DNA of 64,000 nt from Candidatus Levyibacteriota bacterium (GCA_018062815.1 JAGORM010000002.1:92325-156324), one strand, 5' to 3'. Counted from the first letter of the stretch, positions 1,830 through 52,295 are shown. The notes: a model not told the origin generated them from the letters alone. Made by a program: numbers and translations.

Positions 1830-2576
1830 TTAGAGGAGGAAGATAATAATTCCACCTATTACTGTTATTACAATTCCGCCAATGATTCCGACCGTAGCTC
1901 CTATGGATCCACTAGGAGGGATAGTAGGTTGAATGGGCTGGCTAGTCGGAATAACAGGGTTGTTAACTATTGGCGGTGGGTTATTCACTGGAGGATTAAC
2001 CACAACCGGTGTTTTTGTAGGCGATGGAGTAGGAGTAGGCGTCAGTGTAGGAGTAGGCGTAGGAGTAGGTATTTTTGTTGGTGTAGGTGAGGGAGTAGGA
2101 GTAGGCGTCAGTGTAGGAGTAGGCGTAGGAGTGCTTACAGGAATAGTAGGGGTTGGGGTTGCCGTTGGAGGTGGAGGGGTGCAAGAACTGGTAGCACTTC
2201 CAACGCCACTGGGTCCGCATGTATTTTTTGCTATAACCTCACATCTGTATGATTTTCCTTCCTCTGGTTGGAATGTGATAGAAGTTGCCGTGGTGTTGCC
2301 TGCGAGTAATTGTGTATTTGTTGACAGGTCTATAATCTTATAATCATATGATGTTGCCCCCGATACCGCGTTCCATGAGCATTTTCCCGCATCAACTGGA
2401 CATGCATTAGGGGCTTGAGAGATGCGTTGAGGTGGCTGGGGTGTAGTTATTTTTTGAATAAGAAAAACCAGTGTCGGAATAACAATCACTAATGTAACGA
2501 TTCCTATAATAAGTATTTTTTTCTTTAGTTTTGTATTCATATTATTGACATATTCCGCTATAAATTGGCAAACCAT
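1830..2576 (-). CDS. surface protein with an N-terminal TM helix, an FN3-like domain, a Pro/Thr-rich repeat linker and a C-terminal hydrophobic anchor
   Basis: N-term MNTKLKKKILIIGIVTLVIVIPTLVF (likely true start near 2540). The linker has PTPTPTLTPTPTPSPT repeated. The C-terminal IGGIVITVIGGIIIFLL is hydrophobic. Confidence 0.55.
   Translation of the reverse strand: MVCQFIAEYVNNMNTKLKKKILIIGIVTLVIVIPTLVFLIQKITTPQPPQRISQAPNACPVDAGKCSWNAVSGATSYDYKIIDLSTNTQLLAGNTTATSITFQPEEGKSYRCEVIAKNTCGPSGVGSATSSCTPPPPTATPTPTIPVSTPTPTPTLTPTPTPSPTPTKIPTPTPTPTLTPTPTPSPTKTPVVVNPPVNNPPPIVNNPVIPTSQPIQPTIPPSGSIGATVGIIGGIVITVIGGIIIFLL
2030..2160. repeat. approximately 60-bp tandem direct repeat (2 copies) encoding the PTPTPTLTPTPTPSPT linker
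   Basis: gtaggagtaggcgtcagtgtaggagtaggcgtaggagt recurs about 60 bp apart within the CDS. Confidence 0.6.
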
Positions 2577-3549
2577 TTATATTAGACACGCTACAAATAC
2601 CGCTTATACAATCCGTAGGTACAGAGCATGAAGATCCTGGTTTTCCAACATTACTTTTAGGAGTTGGGGTAGCTGTTGGAGCTCTTGTTGGAGTAACTGT
2701 TGGTTGATTCCCCGTTGGGGTTATTGGTGTCTGATCTCCTGAAGTGGGAGAAGGAATAGGTGTGCTTATTTTAGGTGTAGGAGTAGGTATTACGCTTGAT
2801 CCGCCATCACAGCCGATACAGGTAACAATTACGCCTGCAGGAGTTCCAGGTACAGGACATGCTAACGTAGGCGTAGGAGTTCCAGGTACGTTTGTTGGCG
2901 GTGGGGTATTTCCAGGGGGTTGAGTTACTCCTACGGTAGGAGTAGGTATTTTTGTAGGCGATGGTGTTGGGGTAGATTCTGTTGTTGGTGTAGGCGAGGG
3001 TGTTGGAGGAGTTTCACAGTCAAAATAGAAAAAGAATGACATTTCCGTTCCGTTCCTACTTTTTATATTGTCTGACTGTGTTGCGTCTGGAAGATATACA
3101 TCAGGTGTCCCATCGCCTGCATACACCCTACATGTACCGTTAAATGATCCACCTGAGAAATAAGCGTTTACCTGAAGATTATCATCGCAGCCACCTGAAC
3201 TGCACCCAATTGTTTGGATGTCCCCATATGAGGCTGTGCCATTAAATGGTGAAGTAGTAGTTGAGTCTGATCTTTTTAAACATTTTACCTCGCTGGTGCA
3301 GGCAGGGGCTCCAACATCAATTCTAAAGACTTGATTTGGAGGAATATTCTTACCAGTTATCTTGAAATTAAGCCCAACAGAGTCTACAAAGTTTACTCCC
3401 GGGTAAATTTCAGATACAGGTACATTTCCTGCCCCTGGGCAAGTGTCCCAACTCTTTGCGCAAGCAACATTGTCAGAGGTGTTTATGCCAATAAAATAGA
3501 GTGCTATAAAAAATACGACCCCTATAAATATTTTTTTAATTCTGTTCAT
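2542..3549 (-). CDS. secreted protein with a signal peptide, Pro/Thr-rich linkers and a Cys-rich C-terminal knot
   Basis: N-term MNRIKKIFIGVVFFIALYFIG has the hydrophobic h-region of a signal peptide. PTPSPT tracts follow. The C-term reads SSCSVPTDCISGICS...SGICQ. Confidence 0.5.
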   Translation of the reverse strand: MNRIKKIFIGVVFFIALYFIGINTSDNVACAKSWDTCPGAGNVPVSEIYPGVNFVDSVGLNFKITGKNIPPNQVFRIDVGAPACTSEVKCLKRSDSTTTSPFNGTASYGDIQTIGCSSGGCDDNLQVNAYFSGGSFNGTCRVYAGDGTPDVYLPDATQSDNIKSRNGTEMSFFFYFDCETPPTPSPTPTTESTPTPSPTKIPTPTVGVTQPPGNTPPPTNVPGTPTPTLACPVPGTPAGVIVTCIGCDGGSSVIPTPTPKISTPIPSPTSGDQTPITPTGNQPTVTPTRAPTATPTPKSNVGKPGSSCSVPTDCISGICSVSNINGLPIYSGICQ

Positions 3550-6710: not shown

Positions 6711-7406
6711 ATGCATAATACTATTATGAAATACAATATAAATCTTGATATATCACTTAAAGAAAACCCATATCCTGGTTCTTATATAGCTCTTGAAGGA
6801 ATAGATGGAAGTGGGAAAACAACTCAGGTAGAATTGCTTGCAAAATACTTTAGGTCTCTTGGAAAAGAAGTAGTAACAACCAGGGAGCCAAGAAAAGAAG
6901 GACTAATTGGTGATTTAGTTCAGAAGGTGCTTTTAGGAAAGGAAAAATTACCCTCGGTTTCGCTACAGTATCTTTTCTCCGCGGATAGATCAGCGCACCA
7001 CGAAGAACTTGTAGAGCCGTCTTTAAAAGAGGGGAAGATTGTAATCTCTGATAGATGTTTTTGGTCGGCAATTGTTTATGGAATACTTGACAGAACAGGC
7101 GGTAAGTATGACACTAACGTTTCTGATTTATTATTAATTTCACAATCAATTCTTTCTATGTATCATCAATTCATCATCCCTGACCATACGTTTTATCTTA
7201 GAATTTCTCTTGAAACGGCAATTAAAAGACTGAGTGGGAAAAAAGAAACTGTAGAAATTTATGAGGAAAAAAGTAAACTTGAAAAACTTATTACTGGGTA
7301 TGACTTCTTAGAGAAAAAGTTTTCAGATAACATAATAACGTTAAGTGGTGAAGGGGATACTGGTATGGTCACAAAACGTATTTTAGAAAGGATTAAAGAT
7401 AAGTGA
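6711..7406 (+). CDS. tmk: thymidylate (dTMP) kinase
   Basis: P-loop IALEGIDGSGKTTQVELLAKYF, then DRCFWSAIVYG (the DR(Y/F)xxS motif). Confidence 0.85.
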   Translation: MHNTIMKYNINLDISLKENPYPGSYIALEGIDGSGKTTQVELLAKYFRSLGKEVVTTREPRKEGLIGDLVQKVLLGKEKLPSVSLQYLFSADRSAHHEELVEPSLKEGKIVISDRCFWSAIVYGILDRTGGKYDTNVSDLLLISQSILSMYHQFIIPDHTFYLRISLETAIKRLSGKKETVEIYEEKSKLEKLITGYDFLEKKFSDNIITLSGEGDTGMVTKRILERIKDK

Positions 7407-7942
7407 TTTTAGAACCCAAGTTGCTTTTACAATTAGTTAAGAAAAATAAACTTGTTGAAAATCTTGCGGATAGGGAGTTAACAAATCCAGAGGGTGCAGG
7501 ATTTGATCTTCGAATTGGTAAGGTTTTTAAACTTCAGGGAGACTCATTTTTAGGAATTGATGAGCGTAAAACTCCAGATGTAAAACTTGTTGCAGAATTT
7601 AATCCTAAAAAGATATCTAAAATTGTTATAAAGCCGGGAGAAATTTATCTGACAGAAACATATGAAAAATTTAATATGCCGCTTGATTTAGTCGGGATTC
7701 TAAAGCCCAGAACAACACTTCAAAGGTCGGGAATTATTGCGCGTATGGCAATTGTTGACCCGGGGTATAGTGGGACGGTTCATCCGCTTTTATATAATGC
7801 CGGACCGGCAACTGTGACAATTGAAATGGGTGCGCGGTATATTTTTGCAATGTTTATGGAAATAAAAGGAAAAGGAAGTCAGTATAGAGGGCAATGGCAA
7901 GGTGGACGCGTCGCCGCAACAAAAAAAGAGAGACAAGTTTAA
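7403..7942 (+). CDS. second dCTP deaminase/dUTPase-fold protein; possibly a Dcd-type dUTP diphosphatase
   Basis: GAGFDLRIGKVF...KPRTTLQRSGIIARMAIVDPGYSG shows the Dcd/Dut family jelly-roll motifs but is distinct from 6076..6648. The start overlaps the tmk stop by 4 bp. Confidence 0.65.
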   Translation: MILEPKLLLQLVKKNKLVENLADRELTNPEGAGFDLRIGKVFKLQGDSFLGIDERKTPDVKLVAEFNPKKISKIVIKPGEIYLTETYEKFNMPLDLVGILKPRTTLQRSGIIARMAIVDPGYSGTVHPLLYNAGPATVTIEMGARYIFAMFMEIKGKGSQYRGQWQGGRVAATKKERQV

Positions 7943-8597
7943 CTCCTCTATGAGTTCTTACAGAGCATACATCTTTGATCTAGATGGAACGATTACTAAT
8001 ACTATGGTAGTTTGGTTAGATCTTTTTAGGCAAGCACTTGCTCATTTTAAGGTCCCATCACCAGAAGATTCTATGATTATGAAATACACCCATGATTGGA
8101 GAGAGATGGTAAACCTTGGGCTACCAGAAGAAAAAGTCTTGGAATTTTCTTCTTACATGACAGAAAAAGCACATACCCATTTGCCTGAAGCAGCATTTCA
8201 TGTGGGTGCTTATGAAACGCTCGATTCACTGAAAAACAACAGGGAAAAAATTGCAATATTTTCCAATATGGATCGTCCGTTATTTGAATCTGCTATAAAA
8301 CATAGGAATTTACATACCATTACGTCTGTTACGATTGCTGGAACTGACGTGCCTCACAGAAAGCCAAAACCTGACGGAATACTACGCGCATTGGAACTTC
8401 TAAAAATTCCAAAAAAAGAACATACAAACGTTGTTTATATAGGAGATAAAGAAACTGATATTCAATCAGCGCGCGCTGCTGGGGTTACTAGTATCTTGTA
8501 CTATCCAGCATCCCATCAGAACATGTATAAATTAGAGGAATTAAAGCTGCATAAACCGGATCGCATTATTACGGATTGGTCACAGCTCTTAACTTGA
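7902..8597 (+). CDS. HAD-superfamily hydrolase (phosphatase; plausible nucleotidase)
   Basis: Motif I reads YIFDLDGTITNT and motif IV reads VYIGDKETDIQSARAAG. The true start is probably the internal Met MSSYRAYIF near 7947. Confidence 0.7.
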   Translation: MDASPQQKKRDKFNSSMSSYRAYIFDLDGTITNTMVVWLDLFRQALAHFKVPSPEDSMIMKYTHDWREMVNLGLPEEKVLEFSSYMTEKAHTHLPEAAFHVGAYETLDSLKNNREKIAIFSNMDRPLFESAIKHRNLHTITSVTIAGTDVPHRKPKPDGILRALELLKIPKKEHTNVVYIGDKETDIQSARAAGVTSILYYPASHQNMYKLEELKLHKPDRIITDWSQLLT

Positions 8598-8634
8598 AAA
8601 AACGCTTTAAAGAGTTTATAAATAAACAGTCATT

Positions 8635-9627
8635 ATGGCAAACCAAAAACATCAGGAATATCAATATTTAGACTTACTGAAAGAAGCCTTAGAGCATGGG
8701 GAACGCAAGGTTGATCGTGGGACAGATATAAAGCTGTATAGTTTGTTTGGTCGTCAAACTCGATACGACTTGTCAGAAGGATTTCCGCTTTTGACCACTA
8801 AAAAAGTTTACTGGAAGGGTGTTATTCATGAACTTGCGTGGTTTATGTCAGGCGACACAAATATTAAATATTTAGTGGATAACAACGTACATATCTGGGA
8901 CGACTACCCATACAAAATTTTTAAAACAAAAAATGCTAAATCTAAATTCACAAAAGATGAGTTTATTGAAAAAATTCGGGAGGACGCAAAATTTGCAAAA
9001 AAGTGGGGAGACCTTCCTCGGATATATGGAGAAATGTGGAGGAAATGGCCTACCCATTCGGCAAGCTCAGGGCGAGCTAAAAAACCTCGAACAATTGATC
9101 AGTTGGCCTGGGTGATGCAGGAGTTAAAAGAGGATCCAGATGCAAAAAATGCAATTGTTACTTCCTGGAATCCAGAATATATGTATACCATGGCGTTGAA
9201 AAAGGAGGCAAATAGATTTCCCATCTGCCACAACATGTATCAAGTTTCCAGGCGTGGGAACAAGTTATCATTACAGCTCTATCAAAGAAGCGCAGACTTG
9301 TTCTTAGGAGTTCCATTTAATATTGCTTCATATTCTCTGCTTATCATTATTCTTGCAAACATTATGGATTTAGAACCCGGAGAATTTATTCATACCTTTG
9401 GAGACGCGCATATTTATGAAAATCATATACCACAGGTAAAAGAACAGTTAACTCGTGTGCCAAGACCTTTTCCAAAGATAAAAATAAATCGGAAAATAAA
9501 ATCTATTGATGATTTTAAAGCAGAGGATATTGAGCTTTTAGAATATGATCCGTATCCTGCCATGAAAGCAGAGCTGACAGTTGCGGGAGGTCTGTATGAC
9601 AAAAAAACCGGCAAAATGGCCGGATGA
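8635..9627 (+). CDS. thyA: thymidylate synthase (ThyA), long form with an about 50-aa insertion
   Basis: LLTTKKVYWKGVIHELAWFMSGDTNIKYL, the active-site region FPICHNMYQ, and DLFLGVPFNIASYSLL. Confidence 0.85.
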   Translation: MANQKHQEYQYLDLLKEALEHGERKVDRGTDIKLYSLFGRQTRYDLSEGFPLLTTKKVYWKGVIHELAWFMSGDTNIKYLVDNNVHIWDDYPYKIFKTKNAKSKFTKDEFIEKIREDAKFAKKWGDLPRIYGEMWRKWPTHSASSGRAKKPRTIDQLAWVMQELKEDPDAKNAIVTSWNPEYMYTMALKKEANRFPICHNMYQVSRRGNKLSLQLYQRSADLFLGVPFNIASYSLLIIILANIMDLEPGEFIHTFGDAHIYENHIPQVKEQLTRVPRPFPKIKINRKIKSIDDFKAEDIELLEYDPYPAMKAELTVAGGLYDKKTGKMAG

Positions 9628-9662
9628 GGTTGGTAGTAAGTAGACAGTAGTATGTATTAAGT

Positions 9663-10037
9663 ATGAATACGAAAATACATTCATTTACAGACTTGAATGC
9701 TTGGAAAGAGTCTCACATGTTAGTACTTCAAATATATAAAATAACAAAAGAATTTTCTGCGGATGAAAAGTTTGGACTTGTAGACCAGATGAGAAGATGT
9801 GCGGTGTCAATTAGTAGTAATATTGCGGAAGGATTTTTCAGGAGAACAAAAAAAGAAAAAGCCCAATTTTTCTATATGGCACTTGGATCTTTAACAGAAC
9901 TTCAGAATCAGCTATTAATCTCTCGTGATTTAACGTATATTGATAACAAGACGTTTACGGATTTAGCCGAGCAAACAGTAACCATAAGTAAACTTGTTAA
10001 TGGTTTGGTGAAGAGTTCGAGGAATTTTAATACATAA
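9663..10037 (+). CDS. four-helix-bundle protein (23S rRNA intervening-sequence protein family)
   Basis: DLNAWKESHMLVLQIYKITKEF...DQMRRCAVSISSNIAEGF is the hallmark pattern of that family. Confidence 0.65.
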   Translation: MNTKIHSFTDLNAWKESHMLVLQIYKITKEFSADEKFGLVDQMRRCAVSISSNIAEGFFRRTKKEKAQFFYMALGSLTELQNQLLISRDLTYIDNKTFTDLAEQTVTISKLVNGLVKSSRNFNT

Positions 10038-10047
10038 TACTTACTAC

Positions 10048-10488
10048 ATGATACACAATACTCGTATTTCTACCGTTGCAGCGCTTGCGTTTAAAGATGA
10101 TAAAGTTCTTTTAGTAAGGCATGGAGAAGCGGCCCATCATTTAACAGGCGTATATGGCTTACCAGGAGGAAGACTTGACGAGGGTGAAAATCTTTTAGAC
10201 GGTGCAGCACGCGAATTTCAAGAAGAAACTGGGCTTATTGCTGATAAATCATCAATGGTTCAGATTCCAATCAGTTACGAAGCAGAAATTCCCAGAAAAG
10301 GTGGGGAAATTTTAAGTACATCATGGAGCGTGTTTTTAGTAAAAAATTACCAAGGAGATTTGTTGGATTCAAAAGACACTGATGAAACAATTCCCGAATG
10401 GGTTGAAGTAGGCAGCGTAGCAGAACTTAATTTGCTGCCGAATACAGAAGATGCTATAAAGGAGGGGCAACAAATTCTTAACTTATAA
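10048..10488 (+). CDS. NUDIX hydrolase
   Basis: The Nudix box reads GLPGGRLDEGENLLDGAAREFQEETGL. Confidence 0.75.
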   Translation: MIHNTRISTVAALAFKDDKVLLVRHGEAAHHLTGVYGLPGGRLDEGENLLDGAAREFQEETGLIADKSSMVQIPISYEAEIPRKGGEILSTSWSVFLVKNYQGDLLDSKDTDETIPEWVEVGSVAELNLLPNTEDAIKEGQQILNL

Positions 10489-11119: not shown

Positions 11120-11575
11120 ATGAAAAAGCTGAAGAAGTATGAATTTTATCCACCTCACAAGCATTTTGTGCGTTTTCTTAAGCGTGTTGAATATAAAAGA
11201 TATTTTTTGTACTTAATCCGTTGGCAATTATCAACTCCTATACTTGCACCCATTGTAGCCTGGGTAAAACATTCACCATCTATTCTTGGTACTCCTGAAG
11301 ATTGGTATGCTGCGGGAATCGCAAATCTTATAGGAGGTCTTATTTTCTTTTGGGTTGACCTTTTTATATTCAAATCTCAATCTTTGGCTACACAATGGGA
11401 AATTAAAGAAAATATTAGATGTACGGATTGCAGAAAGATTGCTCGTGGTTATAGACTAGTTAAAACACCAAAATATGACAGGACAAAAGATATAAATCCT
11501 GAATTTAGGTGTGAAAATTGTTCTATGAAAAAGTCAAAAAAATTAAGAGAAAGAGGTATTTCTACTGAAGGGTGA
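11120..11575 (+). CDS. hypothetical membrane protein with a C-terminal CxxC...CxxC zinc-ribbon
   Basis: Two predicted TM helices, then CTDCRK...CENCSMKK. Confidence 0.4.
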   Translation: MKKLKKYEFYPPHKHFVRFLKRVEYKRYFLYLIRWQLSTPILAPIVAWVKHSPSILGTPEDWYAAGIANLIGGLIFFWVDLFIFKSQSLATQWEIKENIRCTDCRKIARGYRLVKTPKYDRTKDINPEFRCENCSMKKSKKLRERGISTEG

Positions 11576-12194
11576 TCGTGAGGGGTCGAGTATCTTTAAG
11601 GATAGAGCCCTGAGTAGTATTTGTTGTCACCTTTGTTTCTTTCCCAAATGTAATACTTGCAGAAGCACTTGTTCCTTTTATCACAGTAAATGCTAATTTC
11701 CCAATACTTCCGGTCCCATTTACAGGCAAGCCGTTTGTGCTTATAACTTCTGCAAAAGTTAGCTTTCCGGGAACTGAAGTATCTGTAAATAGTGTCATAT
11801 GAGATCCGGGATTGTTTCCGAAAAGTGAATTAGTGGTTTCAGACGGAAGAATCTTAACATTTGTTATCTGTTTTGGGTCATAAAGAATTTCTGCTTGGGC
11901 ACCAGTTATAGGGGTACCTGCCGTTTCAACAATTATGTCAACGGTCGCTGATGGTGTAGTTGAGGTTGAAAGGTCTAACACTGCAGGAAAAAAAGAGACG
12001 CTAGCCGTTTTCATAACTGTTGGGGTGGGGGTAACTGTTGCAACTGTAACTGCTGGTTTATTTTGGGATCCAATCCAAATGGAAAGCCCGAGTAGTGCAA
12101 CCGTTAGAGTAACTAAAAAAGATATCAGAATTAATGTTTTTCCTGGGATACTCCTCATATATTTATTATGCCCATAAGGGCAAAAAAATTGCAA
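11562..12194 (-). CDS. secreted or membrane-anchored cohesin-like domain protein
   Basis: N-terminal TM and a PT linker, then VDIIVETAGTPITGAQAEILYDPKQITNVKI...GKLTFAEVISTNG...GSIGKLAFTVIKGT...ITFGKE. This resembles the type-I cohesin pattern (xFxYDPxxLxxxxV ... G.F.F...G.AxxxFxV). Confidence 0.45.
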   Translation of the reverse strand: MQFFCPYGHNKYMRSIPGKTLILISFLVTLTVALLGLSIWIGSQNKPAVTVATVTPTPTVMKTASVSFFPAVLDLSTSTTPSATVDIIVETAGTPITGAQAEILYDPKQITNVKILPSETTNSLFGNNPGSHMTLFTDTSVPGKLTFAEVISTNGLPVNGTGSIGKLAFTVIKGTSASASITFGKETKVTTNTTQGSILKDTRPLTITLQ

Positions 12195-17489: not shown

Positions 17490-18482
17490 CTAGTCGCCAA
17501 TTACTCCTCCCCATTCAACTGCTGTAAATCCTTTTCTTTCAGGAGCGGGAGTAATAGTGAGTTGTATAACGTTTTTAGGATTTATGAGAGGTGCAAAATA
17601 AGCAATAAACTCTATGAAAGTATCAGGTTTGGGTGTAATTAAAACACTATCCTGACGTTCTTTTTCCTCTTTTTCTAATACGGAAAAGAAGATATAGTTA
17701 GTATCAAGTTCTTGTAGTCGTGGGATCCAGAAGTCTAAAAATTCATCTTGTTCGTCTTTTTTTGTAAGACCCAGCAATATGATTTTATCCCTTAAGTTAC
17801 TTTTCAGGTTTTCTTTTGAGAGAACAATTCCTTTTTTGGGACGGTTAACTTTTCCCGATTCTATTTCATAAAATAATTCTCTGTATGTTTTTCCCATATA
17901 TTCAAGTTTTCCGCTAGGGTGTGCGAGTACATTTTTCCATCCACCGGATGGGTAGAGCGGATCACTAACAATTATCTTTCCTTGCGTTTTAACTGTCACA
18001 TTTACATATGTTTCAGTAGTTGGGTAAAGATAGATAACTGGTTTTCCTATGCAGTATGATCCATCTCCATAGTTAAGGTTTGTCTCACAAAATATGTATT
18101 GATTGCAAAAGTCAGCCTTAGCTTGAGTATCAAACGGGTTTTCAACTACACATCTCTTATTTTTGCATGTGAACATTCCTTGACGTGCTTTGCATATGCA
18201 TGGAAGTGTAACCGGTTTTCCGGTGTCAACAGGGCATATGGATGTGTCTTCCTGGTCTGGAGTTGATTCGGTTACTGTAGGGACAAGGGTTTTGGGTTGT
18301 GCCGGGTTAAAAGTATCTATCTGTATGTTAGCGCGTGGATTATTTGATGCAATTTTTGCAGCTTTAGGAGTTTTTGCAATTAATATTGCGGCAAAAACAG
18401 CACATGTCACAAGAAGTAAAATTCCTATTTTGATAAATGATATTCTATGTGCCTTTTTACTAATGTTTTTCTTTCTTTTCAT
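17490..18482 (-). CDS. hypothetical secreted Cys-rich protein
   Basis: N-terminal TM, a Cys-rich block (CPVDTGKPVTLPCICK...CKNKRC), and an uncharacterised C-terminal domain. Confidence 0.35.
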   Translation of the reverse strand: MKRKKNISKKAHRISFIKIGILLLVTCAVFAAILIAKTPKAAKIASNNPRANIQIDTFNPAQPKTLVPTVTESTPDQEDTSICPVDTGKPVTLPCICKARQGMFTCKNKRCVVENPFDTQAKADFCNQYIFCETNLNYGDGSYCIGKPVIYLYPTTETYVNVTVKTQGKIIVSDPLYPSGGWKNVLAHPSGKLEYMGKTYRELFYEIESGKVNRPKKGIVLSKENLKSNLRDKIILLGLTKKDEQDEFLDFWIPRLQELDTNYIFFSVLEKEEKERQDSVLITPKPDTFIEFIAYFAPLINPKNVIQLTITPAPERKGFTAVEWGGVIGD

Positions 18483-19079
18483 TTATTTTGTGTTAATTTC
18501 CAGATTTACTTTTCCTAGTACAACATTTGGAGTTTGTGGAGAGGACGCAAAAGATGCTTGGTCAATTTTTATAATTGCGGAAGTTGTTCCCTGTGTAAGT
18601 TTTCCGGTTACTTTTGCAATTATTCCCTTCCCTTTTGGGTATGGAATTGAAGTGGGTATCAGATAAGACTGGCTAATTGTTCCTTGTTCAGGGTTGCTTT
18701 GTTTGATTCCTGCGGTGAGATTTACAGAATAGGATAAGGCAGAGGAAGGATCATTTACGGATATAATTTTAACATTACTAACTTGAAGCGGATCATACGA
18801 TAGCGCAATTGTAATTTTAGAGACGGGGATGCCATAGCTATCAAATAGTATGCTTGAGGTAAATGTGGACTGTTTATTTATGGTTATTGTGTTGGGTGAG
18901 AAAGAAACCATCATAGTAGGAGATTCTTGTTTGGGTGTTTGAGTAGGAACTATTTTTTGAGTTAATGAAGGAGGAGGGGTATTTTCATTGAGAAATACAA
19001 AAAAAACAATAAATATAAAAATAACTATAGATACTAAAAATAAAATAAGCGTCAATTTTTTTTTGAAAACACCAGTCAT
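18483..19079 (-). CDS. membrane-anchored cohesin-like domain protein
   Basis: ITIALSYDPLQVSNVKIISV...GKGIIAKVTGKLTQGTTSAIIKIDQASF resembles the cohesin pattern and the 11562..12194 protein. Confidence 0.4.
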   Translation of the reverse strand: MTGVFKKKLTLILFLVSIVIFIFIVFFVFLNENTPPPSLTQKIVPTQTPKQESPTMMVSFSPNTITINKQSTFTSSILFDSYGIPVSKITIALSYDPLQVSNVKIISVNDPSSALSYSVNLTAGIKQSNPEQGTISQSYLIPTSIPYPKGKGIIAKVTGKLTQGTTSAIIKIDQASFASSPQTPNVVLGKVNLEINTK

Positions 19080-19093
19080 ATCTTTATCTTATA

Positions 19094-21226
19094 TCATATA
19101 CATACTCCTGCGCCAGGATTGTTTGTAAAGACACAGGCAGTACCCGTTTTCATTTGTAGGCACTGATTATTTCTGGTGCAGCTTGTTACGTTTACTTCAG
19201 AGTTGGTGGATGCTGTACTGCCTGAAGTACCTGTGCAGCAGATATTTCCTTTTCCTGATTTCTGACATGAATAATTATGTCCCAATGGAGAAGCCAGAGT
19301 GCCTGATTTACACGTGTTTCCTGACTCACAGTGATAAGAGCTTGTATTGCAGTATGCGCCTGATTCTGAGGGGTCTTTGTATACACAATATGATGTTGCA
19401 GTTCCCGTACTGCTTGTACACTTAAATTCAGGGGCACAGTCGCTATTCCCATTATAACAGTGGTCGTTTTCCCTTCCTGATCCTCCCGTATTTCCTCCAC
19501 CACCTGATGAGGGAGCAACACAACTAGATTTATTTGCCATGCATTTCCCTTGCGCTTCACAATAGCGTTCAGTAAATCTACAGCAGTAAGTCTGGTTTGA
19601 GGAGTTATTTGCGTCTTTCCATCCGGGGTAGCATGCGTTATCTGAGCTTCCTCCGCAAGAGCTTCCCTGAGTTGTGCATGATTGACCTATCTGATTATCG
19701 CTGTTATTGCCGTTTTCACCGGTATTGTTTCCCGGGGGAGGATTTTCTTTTTTTTGATCATCATTTTTGGGAGGACTATTATTATTTCCAGTGTTTTCAA
19801 GACAACAAACAGAGCGAGAACTGCCATACGCGTTTGCGCATGCTAAATTTGCTTCTTGTTGCGTAGCGTTTGTGTCAGGCTTAAATCCAGTGCCACATGC
19901 CGTTGCCTGACAGGTATTCACTTTTCCAGAAGGACCTATGTTATTGCATGCGCTTGGACGGAATGTGCACTTAGCTCCATCCCAATAAGGAGTAGGGTCT
20001 TTACAGGTCTGTCCTTGAGGAGGCTGAGGGAGTGTGCCTGAGTTGTCTTGCACCCAGGGGAATTTGTTACATATCTTCATGAGACCGTTTTTAGGTGTAA
20101 AATCATAGGTTTTATCAGCACAAAGATAGACATCATAATATTTACCCGTCGCATAGGGATTTGGGGTTGATTTTGCTTTTTGATCTGTAAATAGACCCAG
20201 TTTATAGTTTTCATTTGTGGGTTGGGTTGTCATGCATATTGGCCCGTAATATCCGTTGGGATAGGAATCTGTATTAACCCCGTTTTTCTCTTTGCAGATG
20301 ACTGTGGTAGAAGATTTACCCGTGCCGGGATTTTGTTGGAAATTATTACCTTCACCTTCAAAATAAGCGCTTTTTTTAAGTGTCTCTTTTTCTCTTAAGT
20401 TAAAATTTCCTCCTGGGAAAACGCCTTGATCACCCATTATGGAATTTTTATATTCTGGGGAATTAACGGGATATCCTATCTCGTTCGGATGAGAAAGTCC
20501 AAATGTATGTCCTAGTTCATGAGCTATAGCTCCCGTGCCCTGTCTGCTAGTGGGCATTTTTTCAGAAGTACACCTATCAACGGAATTAATCGGGTCATTT
20601 TTGTAATAATATTTTTTTATTCTATTACAGTTTTTGTCCAACTCTGGGTAAATGGAGACATCTCCAATTACGGCAGTCGCAAGTTCACCATTTGCGCCCG
20701 CGTATCCTCCGCCACCCATAAATGCTACAATATTAATTGTTCCAAACTGAGGTCGTCCTATTTCTTGAAGTATATTGCCCATGCCATCTTTTTGAATACA
20801 CTCTGTCTCTCCGTTGCTGCACCAATACCATTCTGAATCTTTTTTCCCAATAACTGTTTTTACCGGTTGCAAAACAAATGTTTTCCCGTTCAATTGCTTA
20901 CCGTAATATGTGCGTATTTCATCCATTTTCTGATTAATATGATTTACTACAGCGTTATCTACTGGATAGTCTGTTGGAAAAAATACTATTGGTTGAACAG
21001 AAAAAGCATTATCCGCTATGCGAGAAGTTGTGGGCTGATTTACCTGGTTTGGGTTGCGAGTTAAACTATTTAAAAAAGAAAGTCCTCCAAACGGAACAAA
21101 GATTGCTATCGCAACGGTTGCAAGTGTGAGGAGAGACAAAAAACCTGAGGACTTATTTATTGTTTTATTGCTAGGTTTAATAAAAGAAGTTTTCATAAAA
21201 TAGGTTTGTTTTAAGAAATCACACAT
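19094..21226 (-). CDS. secreted zinc metalloprotease of the metzincin type with a long Cys/Gly/Asn-rich C-terminal region
   Basis: AHELGHTFGLSHPNE is the HExxHxxGxxH signature, with a downstream SIMGD Met-turn candidate. There is an N-terminal TM/signal. The roughly 300-aa C-terminal tail has many Cys, with N/G/S-rich low-complexity stretches. Confidence 0.6.
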   Translation of the reverse strand: MCDFLKQTYFMKTSFIKPSNKTINKSSGFLSLLTLATVAIAIFVPFGGLSFLNSLTRNPNQVNQPTTSRIADNAFSVQPIVFFPTDYPVDNAVVNHINQKMDEIRTYYGKQLNGKTFVLQPVKTVIGKKDSEWYWCSNGETECIQKDGMGNILQEIGRPQFGTINIVAFMGGGGYAGANGELATAVIGDVSIYPELDKNCNRIKKYYYKNDPINSVDRCTSEKMPTSRQGTGAIAHELGHTFGLSHPNEIGYPVNSPEYKNSIMGDQGVFPGGNFNLREKETLKKSAYFEGEGNNFQQNPGTGKSSTTVICKEKNGVNTDSYPNGYYGPICMTTQPTNENYKLGLFTDQKAKSTPNPYATGKYYDVYLCADKTYDFTPKNGLMKICNKFPWVQDNSGTLPQPPQGQTCKDPTPYWDGAKCTFRPSACNNIGPSGKVNTCQATACGTGFKPDTNATQQEANLACANAYGSSRSVCCLENTGNNNSPPKNDDQKKENPPPGNNTGENGNNSDNQIGQSCTTQGSSCGGSSDNACYPGWKDANNSSNQTYCCRFTERYCEAQGKCMANKSSCVAPSSGGGGNTGGSGRENDHCYNGNSDCAPEFKCTSSTGTATSYCVYKDPSESGAYCNTSSYHCESGNTCKSGTLASPLGHNYSCQKSGKGNICCTGTSGSTASTNSEVNVTSCTRNNQCLQMKTGTACVFTNNPGAGVCI

Positions 21227-21264: not shown

Positions 21265-21780
21265 TTAGCTACAGTTTGTTTTTTCAAATTCCTTTTCTGC
21301 TTTTATTGTTCCCCCTGTCAAATCATTCCCTGATGCAGTGCCGCCTTCATAAAGAATTACTTGCCAGGATTTAGTATTAAATCCATCTGTATTATCCAAC
21401 ACCAAATCATTCACTTGAACGTTTTGTTGATTTGGTTCGAAAGAGTTATAGATGTTTTCATTTATGGTTACCGGCGTAAAAATTTCTCCATTTTTGATTT
21501 CTATTTTGTAGTGTCCATTGGCTGTTCCATGAAACGCAAGGGTAACATTTGAGGTATTATTTGTGCTGTCACACTGTACGCTTGAGGGGAGTTCTATTCT
21601 CCAGCTACTGGAAGGAGTTGCCTGCGGAGATCCAGTATCATTTGCATTTCCATTATTTTTCTTACTGTTTTCTGCCTGAAATAAAAACTGTCCACCTACA
21701 AGTAAAAATGCACCAACAATGACTATAAATATAATAAGAAATTCAATTTCGCCCCTGGTAGTTTTTAATAATTGCTTCAT
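21265..21780 (-). CDS. TadE-like pilin-like (pseudopilin) secreted protein
   Basis: N-term TTRGEIEFLIIFIVIVGAFLLVGG has a Gly followed by Glu at +5 then a hydrophobic helix. This is the class III (prepilin-type) signal as in TadE/TadF. Confidence 0.4.
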   Translation of the reverse strand: MKQLLKTTRGEIEFLIIFIVIVGAFLLVGGQFLFQAENSKKNNGNANDTGSPQATPSSSWRIELPSSVQCDSTNNTSNVTLAFHGTANGHYKIEIKNGEIFTPVTINENIYNSFEPNQQNVQVNDLVLDNTDGFNTKSWQVILYEGGTASGNDLTGGTIKAEKEFEKTNCS

Positions 21781-22811
21781 GGTGTCGGAGTAAGGTTTGT
21801 GCTACCTCCTGTTTCCTCGCAGATCTTGTCCGCAATCTGCCCATAAATTGCCTTAATATCCTCAGGTTTTGTTGTTTTATAAAATGAATTGGGTGAGGCA
21901 ACAGCTTGCATCATGGTTGTAAGCTTGCTTTCAAACGGTCCATCTGTCTTTGGATCAAATACCAGAATCGAGAACACTCTGACATTTTTTCCATTTATGT
22001 TTTTTAGTGCTTGTATTTGTTGGGCAATTTGAGGATTTGTGGTCGGATCCTGATCCGCATCAAAGCAACGGCACGTTCCGGTTTGGTACGCACACATTGG
22101 ATATCTAGCGCTGGAAAAAGATGAGCATGCTGTTGCTGTTGGTACTCCAACACCGTCTCCTTCAGGAATACCATCAGAAATAAAAACCAGATTAAATGAA
22201 TTGTCTTTAAATTTAGGATCAGAAACTGCTTTTGTTAGATCCTCAAGCTCTGCTGCAAAAGCGGTGCGCGTATTAGTTCCGCCTGAGGCTACCAACTGAT
22301 TCACGGCTGCATTAAATTGTGATTTGTTGTTTTTATAAAAATCAATTTCAACCGGTCGGGAAGTTGCTGTTGAGCCTGTATCACTTGAGCTATAACGCCT
22401 AAGACCTGTGATAGAATCATTCGTAAAATTGCTTGCAAAGTCTTTAAGTGAGGATTTAATTATTTGTATTTTATTACCGCGTTCCATTGAGCCTGATGTA
22501 TCAACAAGAAAGTCAATAGCAGCACGGTTACTACATGCTGCAAATCTTATGGTTTTTAGCTGTAGCGCATTTTTTTGTGTTGAGTTTTCGCGGATTGGTT
22601 CACCTATGACATTACTACCCGATTCAGACAGCTTAAATTGAGGACCACCAGAAACCAGAAGAAAAGCACCAAATATTATGACTCCAATAAGTAAATAAAG
22701 CGCAACTTCTCCGCGTTGCCAGAAGAGAAAACTCTTTTTTAGTGTGTGTTTTGATAAATTTGAGGATTTTTTTTTCTTTGAGTTTTTATGGGGAATAGAT
22801 TTTTTCTTCAC
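21777..22811 (-). CDS. von Willebrand factor A domain protein with a TadE-like pilin-type N-terminus (TadG-like putative pilus-tip adhesin)
   Basis: N-term QRGEVALYLLIGVIIFGAFLLVSGG is paralogous to the upstream protein's N-terminus. The MIDAS motif reads FLVDTSGSMERG. It overlaps the previous gene by 4 bp. Confidence 0.55.
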   Translation of the reverse strand: MKKKSIPHKNSKKKKSSNLSKHTLKKSFLFWQRGEVALYLLIGVIIFGAFLLVSGGPQFKLSESGSNVIGEPIRENSTQKNALQLKTIRFAACSNRAAIDFLVDTSGSMERGNKIQIIKSSLKDFASNFTNDSITGLRRYSSSDTGSTATSRPVEIDFYKNNKSQFNAAVNQLVASGGTNTRTAFAAELEDLTKAVSDPKFKDNSFNLVFISDGIPEGDGVGVPTATACSSFSSARYPMCAYQTGTCRCFDADQDPTTNPQIAQQIQALKNINGKNVRVFSILVFDPKTDGPFESKLTTMMQAVASPNSFYKTTKPEDIKAIYGQIADKICEETGGSTNLTPTP

Positions 22812-22983
22812 ATTTTATTGTATATATATGTAGTTTTATTAGTCAACAATTAGTTTAAAAACAGGAATAGTAATATTTATTCTTGCTTGTAAGTTAAAAT
22901 CTTCAGTCTCTTAAAGACGTAGTGAAGTATCCTAAATTTGTGCTACAAAATAATATACAGTGGGTAAAGCCATGAAAGCTTTA

Positions 22984-46824: not shown

Positions 46825-47145
46825 ATGATAAAAGAAAGAAAAAGAAAGAGTAACGGAACAAATTCAGTAGCTGCGGCAGGAATAGGCGCAGTAATTGGTG
46901 CAAGTGTCGCGATTGCAGCATCCGAAGCACTCAAAAATCCTAAAACAAAAGAAAAAGTAATTCATACTCTTGAGATTGTTAAGAATCAGGCAATAGATAA
47001 GATACCGCAAGCGGTATATGAAGGAAAAAAGAATGCAGAGTTAAAGAAATTAGGAAAAAACATAACAAAGAAAGTAAATAAAAGGGCAGATAGGATAAAA
47101 GGCGCAGTAAAAAATAATACTAAAGTTCCTACTGCAATTAATTAA
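46825..47145 (+). CDS. hypothetical small protein (YtxH-like?)
   Basis: An SD aaaggaggtga lies upstream. There is an N-terminal hydrophobic segment followed by a Lys-rich tail. Confidence 0.3.
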   Translation: MIKERKRKSNGTNSVAAAGIGAVIGASVAIAASEALKNPKTKEKVIHTLEIVKNQAIDKIPQAVYEGKKNAELKKLGKNITKKVNKRADRIKGAVKNNTKVPTAIN

Positions 47146-47585
47146 GATTCATTTTCAGCTAAATTAAATTCTTTAAATCTGTCTTTGGGTACAAAGCGAA
47201 TTGAAAGAGAGTTGACGCAGTGTCTAGTGTTCTGGGGAGTAAGATTTTCGCCTATAAAAACATGTCCTAAGTGTGCGTTACAAGTAGCACATTGAATTTC
47301 TGTACGTATATTATCAGGGTCAGGTGTTCGTTTTACGGCTCCTGGATAATTTTCATCAAATGATGGCCAGCCACAGCCTGCGTCAAATTTGGATTTAGAA
47401 GAAAATAGCGGAGAATTGCATTGGCGGCAAATAAACAATCCGTCTTTATAGAAATTGTCATACTCCCCACTGAAAGGCGGCTCTGTGCCTTTATCAAGCA
47501 TTATGTGTTTTTCGTTGGGGGTAAGCGTGTTAAGCGTCATGCAGTATAAGTATACCAGAGATATTTTAATGTATTGAAGGAACAA
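47142..47585 (-). CDS. msrB: peptide methionine sulfoxide reductase MsrB
   Basis: CRQCNSPLF...GCGWPSF...IRTEIQCATCNAHLGHVF. Confidence 0.85.
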   Translation of the reverse strand: MFLQYIKISLVYLYCMTLNTLTPNEKHIMLDKGTEPPFSGEYDNFYKDGLFICRQCNSPLFSSKSKFDAGCGWPSFDENYPGAVKRTPDPDNIRTEIQCATCNAHLGHVFIGENLTPQNTRHCVNSLSIRFVPKDRFKEFNLAENES

Positions 47586-51803: not shown

Positions 51804-52295
51804 TTATGCTTTCTCGTACTCGCCCATTTTAAGCCATTCAATGTAGGCGCACCCCGTTGCCATACGTTTTTCCTTGTCCCATCCTGCAGTTTGGCATTTT
51901 TTCATTTTTTTACCTGTTGCTGTGGTATAAAGTACTAATTTTTTTCCGCACATGGGGCAATCCTCATCTAATTCTTCGCTTGATCCGTTTATCCACTCAA
52001 CAAAATCGCACCCTGTTGCTTTTTTTGATTCCTTATCCCAAATGTTTGTACTGCATTTTTTCATTTTCTTCCCGCTTTTAGTTGTAGCCATTACAAGTGG
52101 ACTTCCGCATTTAGGACATGGCTCTGATAAGGCTTCAGGTTCTATTTCTAGCCACTTAACATAATCGCATCCAATATTTTTTCTCTCATCCTTGTCCCAT
52201 GATCCAGAAGAGCATCTTTGAAGTTTTTTACCCGTTGTCGTAATGGATATTGGGGATAATTCTGATCCGCATTTAGGACATGTTTTTTCAGACAT
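51804..52295 (-). CDS. protein made of three tandem topoisomerase-type C4 zinc-ribbon repeats
   Basis: Three repeats follow the pattern CP(K/M)CG...L......(T/S)G(K)K(M/L)(K/Q)(R/K)C(S/Q)...WDK(E/D)......GC(D/A)(Y/F)(V/I)(K/E)W. Confidence 0.55.
   Translation of the reverse strand: MSEKTCPKCGSELSPISITTTGKKLQRCSSGSWDKDERKNIGCDYVKWLEIEPEALSEPCPKCGSPLVMATTKSGKKMKKCSTNIWDKESKKATGCDFVEWINGSSEELDEDCPMCGKKLVLYTTATGKKMKKCQTAGWDKEKRMATGCAYIEWLKMGEYEKA

Follow-up and report, generated by a model that had tools for sequence, protein, structure and literature searches.

The question raised by this locus is what a bacterium of an ultra-small lineage does with a protein that begins like a zinc protease and ends in a long tail full of cysteines. 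The open reading frame (ORF) occupies 19094–21226 on the minus strand of a 64,000-nucleotide stretch of DNA (hereafter the window; GCA_018062815.1, JAGORM010000002.1:92325–156324) and has 710 residues as called. The DNA comes from Candidatus Levyibacteriota, a lineage of the Microgenomates within the Patescibacteria, or Candidate Phyla Radiation (CPR). Genomes are tiny in CPR bacteria, many of which are thought to live in dependence on other cells. To our knowledge, little has been learned of the means by which they make contact with their surroundings and exploit them, and for most of their surface proteins there is no annotation. The deposited NCBI copy of the protein (P0001, in a Candidatus Levybacteria metagenome-assembled genome, or MAG) is 100% identical and is named “hypothetical protein”; the cluster names of ten relatives are all “hypothetical protein” or absent. 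With a probability that we put at about 0.6, and from sequence comparison together with a structural model, the protein is an exported, catalytically competent surface metzincin with an orphan disulfide-rich tail for targeting or docking.

The zinc site and the Met-turn

The zinc-binding and catalytic motif HELGHTFGLSH occurs a single time in the protein, at residues 236–246 (20489–20521, on the minus strand like all the coordinates of this gene), with H236, E237, H240, G243, and H246 in the pattern HExxHxxGxxH. A Met-turn, SIMGD, follows at residues 262–266 (20429–20443). Its M264 is invariant in the close relatives (alignment A2), at least 90% conserved in the wider family (A4, A6), and aligned, via the family profile, with the structurally defined Met-turn methionine of AMUC_1438 and OgpA. 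The preliminary description of this DNA had proposed both elements, the second as a candidate, and had named the loss of His or Glu in orthologs as the sign of a pseudoprotease. Both elements stand, and no such loss is seen: H, E, H, G, H, and the methionine are kept in all four orthologs. The pattern HExxHxxxxxH is present in 126 of 153 family members (with Gly at motif position 8 in 93 of these 126). In the distant relatives P0005, P0006, and P0007, all the ligands are kept and the motif glycine becomes Leu or Asp. The head is under purifying selection, with a ratio of nonsynonymous to synonymous substitutions (dN/dS) of 0.08–0.14; here and below such ratios are approximate, because dS is about 1 and thus near saturation.

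The family and fold of the catalytic domain

The catalytic domain covers residues ~75–290 (20357–21004). With the whole protein as query, the Pfam and NCBIfam matches (Reprolysin_3, Reprolysin_4, Reprolysin_5, Metallopep, M54, M10, and serralysin) are all below cutoff and extend over 14–42 residues around the motif, and a single-sequence search of the PDB gives MMP-1 only (E about 1). Such direct scans are uninformative. An exhaustive HMMER search over 1.84 billion cluster representatives, with residues 61–309 as the query, yields 154 representatives at E ≤ 1e-3 (25 at E ≤ 1e-10); of the proteins retrieved, 135 align over the full domain. The profile A4, built from 37 family members, matches AMUC_1438 (8DEK, 8DF2) with E 1.4e-14 over profile positions 31–225 and OgpA (6Z2D, 6Z2O) with E 3e-9 (positions 41–257 against 6Z2O). 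Serralysins follow at E 6e-6 and the matrix metalloproteinases (MMPs) and ADAMs at about 1e-3, with the alignment restricted to the motif half. The link to AMUC_1438 and OgpA is transitive, since it is found via the family profile and missed by the single-sequence search.

The predicted fold agrees with the profile. From the 37-member alignment, AlphaFold2 (AF2) gives a head model with a predicted local distance difference test score (pLDDT) of 86.7 and a predicted template modeling score (pTM) of 0.85 (from a 5-sequence alignment, the pLDDT is 56.5 and the model unusable). In model numbering, the strands are at 16–23, 63–66, 103–109, 116–119, and 124–128 and the helices at 31–51, 169–181, and 217–225. 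The order of strand, long helix, strands, active-site helix, and C-terminal helix is that of the metzincin fold, and the motif HELGHTFGLSH falls within helix 169–181 with a pLDDT of 97–98. All the top Foldseek matches of the model in the PDB are metzincins, with OgpA in first place (E 7e-7, TMq 0.59) and adamalysins, ADAMs, and fragilysin next (about 0.4–0.5). The extended motif, the conserved methionine, and the predicted sheet, active-site helix, and C-terminal helix are thus in agreement with the zinc protease of metzincin type proposed at the outset.

AMUC_1438 and OgpA have been proposed as the first members to be characterized within a very large, sequence-diverse peptidase family, and neither classifies into a MEROPS family (PMC9513282). 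The Pfam family most frequently found below threshold among the relatives of the head is PF12044 (22 of 37); in AMUC_1438, only about 30 residues fall into it (PMC9513282). As judged by profile and predicted fold, the head is a distant relative of the OgpA/AMUC_1438 metzincins, the only relatives with solved structures, and it has no Pfam family of its own. It adds a new, remote member to a metzincin family that is known but unclassified.

Relatives of the head at about 30% identity are present in two MAGs of Candidatus Woesearchaeota (L005, L006), DPANN archaea, and the head family is therefore common to ultra-small bacterial and archaeal lineages. The genome scan used a 5-sequence alignment with very specific patterns, and the four loci that it returned do not describe the taxonomic range of the family. 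A 77% identical ortholog is encoded in a contig titled “uncultured Gammaproteobacteria” (L004, CAYMYC010000005.1); with such an ortholog of a Levybacteria gene, the bin is probably mislabeled. The N-terminal region of that gene reads as if frameshifted relative to P0003.

Start site and export

The deposited P0001 has 700 residues and begins at Met11 (window position 21196), and the orthologs begin at the equivalent methionine; the true product is therefore probably the 700-residue chain from Met11. One N-terminal hydrophobic segment, at residues 27–50 (21077–21148), is the sole Kyte–Doolittle peak above 1.5 in the protein and could act as export signal or signal-anchor. Because it is long for a cleavable signal peptide, a signal-anchor is plausible. 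That the protein is secreted, as first supposed, is backed by this segment and by four invariant cysteines in the head, which together point to an extracytoplasmic location reached through the N-terminal segment. Only ~25 residues separate the segment from the catalytic domain, which leaves no space for a prodomain or a cysteine switch. OgpA shows no sign of being a proenzyme either (PMC7518263).

The cysteine-rich tail

The 710-residue ORF contains 39 cysteines (38 counting from Met11); the head has 4 of them, and the final 400 residues have 34. The cysteine content of the gene is 5.4%, against a median of 0.6% for the ORFs of the window, and 30 of the 34 tail cysteines are invariant even when P0004, with a tail only 53% identical, is included; the abundance of cysteines already pointed out is beyond chance. 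A long tail had been described correctly except for its length, which is ~400 residues (301–710) instead of roughly 300. The strings quoted for it, CTTQGSSCGG and CCTGTSGS, are found at residues 517–526 and 663–670, and the runs rich in N, G, S, and P, earlier called low-complexity stretches, are the linkers that join four cysteine blocks.

The first block, T1 (residues 305–475; 19802–20314), has 12 cysteines and a dN/dS of 0.11–0.19, with its last ~50 residues forming a CC-terminated six-cysteine mini-module. It is joined by an Asn/Pro/Gly-rich low-complexity linker (476–516; 19679–19801), of different length among orthologs and with a dN/dS of 0.15–0.25, to T2 (517–569; 19520–19678), with 8 cysteines and a dN/dS of 0.008–0.03. 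After a 19-residue linker (dN/dS 0–0.08) comes T3 (589–664; 19235–19462; dN/dS 0.015–0.04), with 10 cysteines, all invariant with P0004 included, and again a CC-terminated six-cysteine mini-module in its second half. The linker between T3 and T4 has a dN/dS of 0.09–0.77, and T4 (682–710; 19097–19183; dN/dS 0.07–0.23) forms the C-terminus with 4 cysteines, all invariant. Two of the three linkers (T1–T2 and T3–T4) thus evolve much faster than T2 and T3, which keep 92–98% amino-acid identity at this dS. Since the ratios of T2 and T3 are below those of the head, the most constrained part of the protein is not the protease.

The number of cysteines is even in every block (12, 8, 10, and 4), there is no CxxC or CxC among the 34, and the cysteines are invariant to the extent given above. 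On these grounds, we infer a tail of four folded, disulfide-bonded modules, with 17 disulfides in the tail and 2 in the head. Of the disulfide-rich host-interaction modules that the preliminary description was reminded of, the disulfides have this indirect support; as to function, what is seen points to a modular role in targeting or docking.

Searched piecewise against Pfam at E ≤ 10, the tail gives noise only, with neither Disintegrin nor ADAM_CR; the tail profile gives only noise against the PDB sequences. Over 5.8 billion proteins, a tail-only profile retrieves P0001, P0002, P0003, and a new protein, P0154, which make five clusters with P0004. None was found in a scan of metagenome contigs, and we found nothing relevant in the literature on cysteine-rich exoproteins of CPR bacteria. 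As far as these searches can detect, the tail has no relative outside the five protein clusters.

The mini-module follows the pattern C-x4-12-C-x3-6-C-x10-18-C-x5-10-CC over ~40 residues. Two copies are in the tail (19235–19351 and 19802–19948, minus strand), two in P0154 (residues 258–357), and one in P0007 (residues 373–408); P0004 has it in both its N-terminal region and its tail. It is found in 7 of the 155 proteins examined, against 0.065 expected from shuffles, a significance that is overstated because the pattern was derived from the same sequences. A database search with an alignment of the mini-modules gave nothing. At residues ~600–650 of P0004, T2 is replaced by a different cysteine module, NGQKDGTETDVDCGGSCSTCTVGKACSIGSDCQSSTCTGGVC, which implies shuffling of blocks inside the tail.

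Other cysteine-rich ORFs of the window that Pfam identifies are zinc-ribbon, SelR, or RecR proteins. They include a multi-zinc-ribbon protein at 51804–52295 (minus strand, 6.9% Cys) and a SelR/MsrB protein at 47142–47585 (minus strand). A 335-residue protein at 2542–3549 (minus strand, 4.4% Cys) has no Pfam match.

Exchange of heads and tails

In the related locus L001, the tail protein P0004 lacks both an OgpA-like head and a signal sequence. The gene directly upstream, in the same operon, encodes a membrane-anchored M64-like protein of 375 residues with HELGHSVGNLNHEY; the same tail is therefore carried with a different protease head. The M64 igalysins rank as a metzincin family in their own right (bioRxiv 10.1101/2025.10.18.683246). 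The two genes lie at 6857–7984 (M64-like) and 8001–10427 (P0004), with a run of eight adenines just before the stop of the first (in 7921–8010), and the frame of P0004 is open from 7929, upstream of its called start. With a conceptual correction of one nucleotide, the fused protein matches Peptidase_M64 at 28.2 bits (cutoff 26), and the match, at residues 272–400, spans the junction. The interruption at the adenine run could be an assembly error, a pseudogene, or a site of programmed slippage.

A third arrangement may be present in the short contig L010 (1–2425). There, the frame of P0154 is open upstream of the called GTG start, with a single in-frame TAA at 207, and beyond this TAA lies a fragment resembling a right-handed beta-helix (Pfam Beta_helix, 18.9 bits, under the cutoff of 25.9). 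A head that is not a protease may thus carry the tail as well.

The head also occurs in various contexts. Among 82 multidomain relatives from other organisms, its appendages include Big_7, fn3, ConA-like, dockerin, cadherin-like, F5/8-C, and CBM31 domains, and the dockerins are confirmed by Pfam in 3 of the 82. Dockerin-like C-termini in P0005 and P0007 were also considered but have no Pfam support. Taken together, these arrangements suggest that the tail is an interchangeable appendage, exchanged between enzyme heads.

The five-gene operon

The gene is the third of a tight block of five on the minus strand, between rpsB-tsf and SHMT. The first (21777–22811) encodes an N-terminally anchored VWA protein (Pfam VWA, 34.7 bits; cutoff 23.8), syntenic in L001, L002, L011, and L012. 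It is preceded by a promoter-like site at 22846–22817, although such sites are no commoner in the region than expected by chance. The second (21265–21780) overlaps the VWA gene by 4 nucleotides and encodes a 171-residue N-terminally anchored protein of no known family, also syntenic. The fourth (18483–19079), after a gap of 14 nucleotides, encodes a 198-residue N-terminally anchored, cohesin-like protein. The fifth (17490–18482), which abuts the fourth and is syntenic, encodes a 330-residue N-terminally anchored protein of no known family with nine cysteines in its N-terminal region. All the long loci have this block, well conserved in L002, L011, and L012 and in a more divergent form in L001.

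The N-termini of the VWA and 171-residue proteins follow a common pattern (RGE[VI], then hydrophobic residues, then GAFLLV.GG). A leader of TadE or pseudopilin type was considered for the two and set aside as a resemblance without Pfam support.

The gene for the 198-residue protein directly follows the tail gene in L001, L002, L010, L011, and L012, whichever head is present. The protein has no Pfam match of its own; by BLASTP, it is similar to a cohesin-domain protein of the window (E 3e-6 over 54 residues). The latter, at 11562–12194 on the minus strand, falls just short of the cutoff (24.0 against 24.1 bits); its ortholog in L001 (17643–18239) reaches 35.8 bits. Together with the dockerins in 3 of the 82 head relatives, these proteins hint at a surface assembly of the cohesin–dockerin type in these lineages.

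Whether the VWA gene goes with the head was also considered. Such a link was rejected because the loci of the distant head relatives P0005 and P0007 (L007 and L008) have another neighborhood, without a VWA gene. In these two loci, the order argS, 250-residue protein, head, and M16 peptidase is conserved, with an insertion in L008 of two large proteins whose matches to Tricorn/PD40 beta-propellers are faint. This neighborhood may be a separate locus for extracellular proteolysis.

Weighing the alternatives

The label “matrixin/astacin-like” given in the preliminary description cannot be kept. HExxHxxGxxH and a downstream methionine are indeed features of families M10 and M12A, and the motif-only matches to MMP-1 and Peptidase_M10 lean that way, but all such matches are far under cutoff and at most about 26 residues long. 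Peptidase_M10 reaches 11.6 bits (cutoff 24) over 16 residues, and Astacin has no match here and a weak one in 1 of 37 relatives. There is no PRCGxPD cysteine-switch prodomain (PRCG occurs nowhere in the sequence), and both the Glu after the third histidine and the Tyr after the Met-turn methionine, features of astacins, are absent: the sequence has HELGHTFGLSHPNE and NSIMGDQG in place of HExxHxxGFxHExxRxDRD and SxMHY. With OgpA and AMUC_1438 placed well above MMPs and astacins by profile and apparently by fold, a matrixin or astacin is scarcely credible. Neither do the serralysins or the reprolysins fit. Against the NCBIfam serralysin model, the protein scores 18.4 bits (cutoff 500), it has no Tyr after the methionine, and the tail has neither RTX repeats nor a related Pfam match; Reprolysin_2 to Reprolysin_5 score 17–21 bits (cutoffs 22–27), and the third histidine is followed by Pro in place of the reprolysin Asp. 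A pseudoprotease or adhesin, with catalysis lost and the head kept as a scaffold, might be suspected from the replacement of the motif glycine in P0005, P0006, and P0007 and from a tail more strongly conserved than the head. The zinc ligands, the catalytic glutamate, and the methionine are nevertheless invariant in the orthologs and in these same three relatives, and the head evolves under the constraint noted above. This possibility is very improbable; as conservation has it, the protein is not a pseudoprotease. More room is left for an O-glycopeptidase of mucinase type, which like OgpA and AMUC_1438 would cut immediately N-terminal to O-glycosylated Ser/Thr in glycoproteins that belong to a partner cell or are present in the environment. 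These two enzymes are the nearest solved relatives by profile and apparently by fold, some relatives carry lectin-like or carbohydrate-binding domains, and the substitute head in L001 resembles M64, whose IgA peptidases cut near the O-glycosylated hinge of IgA (bioRxiv 10.1101/2025.10.18.683246). In AMUC_1438, each of the alanine mutants of D166, Y171, and Y217 is inactive, and Y171 and Y217 correspond to the Phe and Trp of the OgpA glycan subsites (PMC9513282). When this G′ glycan subsite is sought in the head family, the essential residues are found not to be conserved. Tyr175 does align with Y171, yet it is Leu or Ile in orthologs that are 77–79% identical; the position of Y217 (Trp in OgpA), six residues before HExxH without a gap, is Gly230, with an aromatic residue in just 6 of the 126 family members; and D166 lies within an insertion missing from the family profile. 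No beta-sandwich domain of the OgpA/AMUC_1438 type was identified after the head, where T1 has no sequence match in Pfam or the PDB. Glycan-dependent cleavage of the OgpA kind is therefore unsupported, and the head is probably not an O-glycopeptidase in the manner of OgpA and AMUC_1438; we consider this activity unlikely.

For the tail, the cysteines could instead bind metal ions, in a metallothionein-like or cluster-binding manner, and form no disulfides. The high cysteine content would suit such a role, no oxidoreductase gene is seen in the window, and CPR habitats may be anoxic. On the other side, none of the 34 cysteines is in a CxxC or CxC, while the cysteine-rich ORFs of the window that Pfam identifies are zinc-ribbon, SelR, or RecR proteins; the number of cysteines is even in each block; and the tail lies downstream from an export signal and a protease domain of extracellular type with four conserved cysteines. 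A metal-binding tail is, on balance, improbable. A more specific idea takes the tail for a docking module of a new kind, standing in functionally for a dockerin, by which interchangeable heads are plugged onto the cohesin-like, VWA, or cysteine-rich partners as a Levybacteria-specific surface complex. The 198-residue cohesin-like gene comes directly after the tail gene in all five related loci, its product resembles the cohesin-domain protein of the window, Pfam-confirmed dockerins occur in a few head relatives, and the extreme conservation of T2 and T3 is as expected of an interface with a conserved partner. Several points go against it: the 198-residue protein lacks a Pfam cohesin match, and the cohesin that serves as its reference is a borderline match too; the tail is not similar to dockerins; the protease has its own N-terminal hydrophobic segment; and the 198-residue protein is no better conserved than the other partners (70–75% identity in close orthologs, 46% in L001). 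The docking module is therefore to be taken as a tentative proposal, doubtful as it stands.

Some observations also weigh against the exported surface metzincin with a disulfide-rich tail. The fusion in L001 assumes a slip of one nucleotide, and, if the stop is real, head and tail are adjacent genes there. The contrast in constraint between tail and head is drawn from the approximate dN/dS ratios. The case for “four folded modules” consists solely of the cysteine pattern and its conservation, and no signature of a thiol–disulfide oxidoreductase (thioredoxin, or a DsbA-type CxxC in a motif scan) was found in the 64-kb window. Many CPR bacteria have been described from anoxic habitats, where extracellular disulfides are less certain. 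Last, because the protease has a hydrophobic segment of its own, a docking partner may be unneeded.

Proposed function and significance

If the protein is an exported metzincin as we propose, zinc would be bound by H236, H240, and H246, the water activated by E237, and the Met-turn under the metal site provided by M264. With no prodomain, the enzyme would be made active and either held at the cell surface or released from it; at the surface it would act as an endopeptidase. The tail would be no low-complexity filler: flexible Asn/Gly/Pro/Ser linkers would connect its four disulfide-bonded modules, and it would direct whichever hydrolase head it carries to a conserved ligand. This ligand might be a co-operonic surface protein (VWA, cohesin-like, or cysteine-rich) or an external polymer or cell surface. 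A set of orphan domains under stronger constraint than the enzyme they carry, with heads exchanged within a conserved five-gene surface operon, is the pattern expected of a dedicated targeting or docking system, and it is from this pattern that we infer the role of the tail.

In its most elaborate and rather speculative form, the tail would be a docking device not described before and restricted to Levybacteria, built of disulfide-knotted modules and attaching interchangeable heads to a VWA/cohesin-like/cysteine-rich surface apparatus. The heads would then be the OgpA-like metzincin of this locus, the M64-like igalysin of L001, and, possibly, an enzyme of beta-helix type in L010. Were this so, one would have a minimal machine, cellulosome-like or CLCA-like, with which an ultra-small CPR cell acts on the proteinaceous or glycoprotein surface of its partner.

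Whatever its ligand, a “hypothetical protein” becomes, by profile and model, a probable active metzincin with solved relatives, and the family related to OgpA and AMUC_1438 is extended into CPR bacteria and, at the identity given above, DPANN archaea. The ligand of the tail, if identified, could reveal to what these organisms attach or what they digest. In practical terms the gain is modest: a possible new protease specificity and small disulfide-rich binding scaffolds.

Comparison with known systems

The serralysins (M10B) share with the head HExxHxxGxxHP, with Pro after the third histidine, and they give the best NCBIfam match and the third tier of profile matches. Their match covers the C-terminal half of the domain only, and their Met-turn Tyr (SxMSY) and C-terminal RTX/beta-roll domain are both absent here.

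The ADAMs and the P-III reprolysins of snake venom (M12B) are alike in outline, with a metzincin head followed by disulfide-rich non-catalytic modules, and they form the second tier of fold matches. In ADAMs, the disintegrin and Cys-rich modules act as adhesive or targeting exosites (PMC2173380, PMC2174829). Unlike them, the present protein has Reprolysin matches that are below cutoff and confined to the motif, no match at E ≤ 10 to either of their two tail domains, no prodomain or cysteine switch, and Pro where adamalysins have Asp after the third histidine. The resemblance is an analogy of architecture, and not membership.

In CLCA proteins and M64 igalysins, a metallohydrolase, a Cys-rich domain, and a VWA domain are found (bioRxiv 10.1101/2025.10.18.683246). 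The operon similarly brings together a protease of the metzincin clan, a Cys-rich region, and a VWA domain, and in L001 the head on the same tail is M64-like (HELGHSVGNLNHEY). Here, however, the VWA domain is in a separate gene of the operon and not in the same chain, and the motif of the head in the window is HExxHxxGxxH, and not HExxHxxxGxxDEY. A Pfam search found no CLCA match. The parallel, VWA partner included, is an analogy only.

The closest comparison is with OgpA and AMUC_1438, from the gut mucin degrader Akkermansia muciniphila, whereas the present host is a CPR bacterium. They differ from the head in the glycan-site residues (Gly230 stands for Y217/Trp, and there is no equivalent of D166), and AMUC_1438 has a beta-sandwich and an NPCBM/CBM51-like module where four orphan Cys-rich blocks are found here. 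OgpA is annotated as M11 at NCBI. In common with the head, both have HExxHxxGxxH with a Pro-rich continuation (of the HELGHxFGLPH type) and a Met-turn, no apparent prodomain, and a PF12044 match that recognizes the motif region only; in common with the whole protein, they have a non-catalytic region for targeting (putatively so in the present tail) after the catalytic head. OgpA is the top fold match, with a TMq of only 0.59, and the profile similarity to the pair extends over about 200 residues, well beyond the motif.

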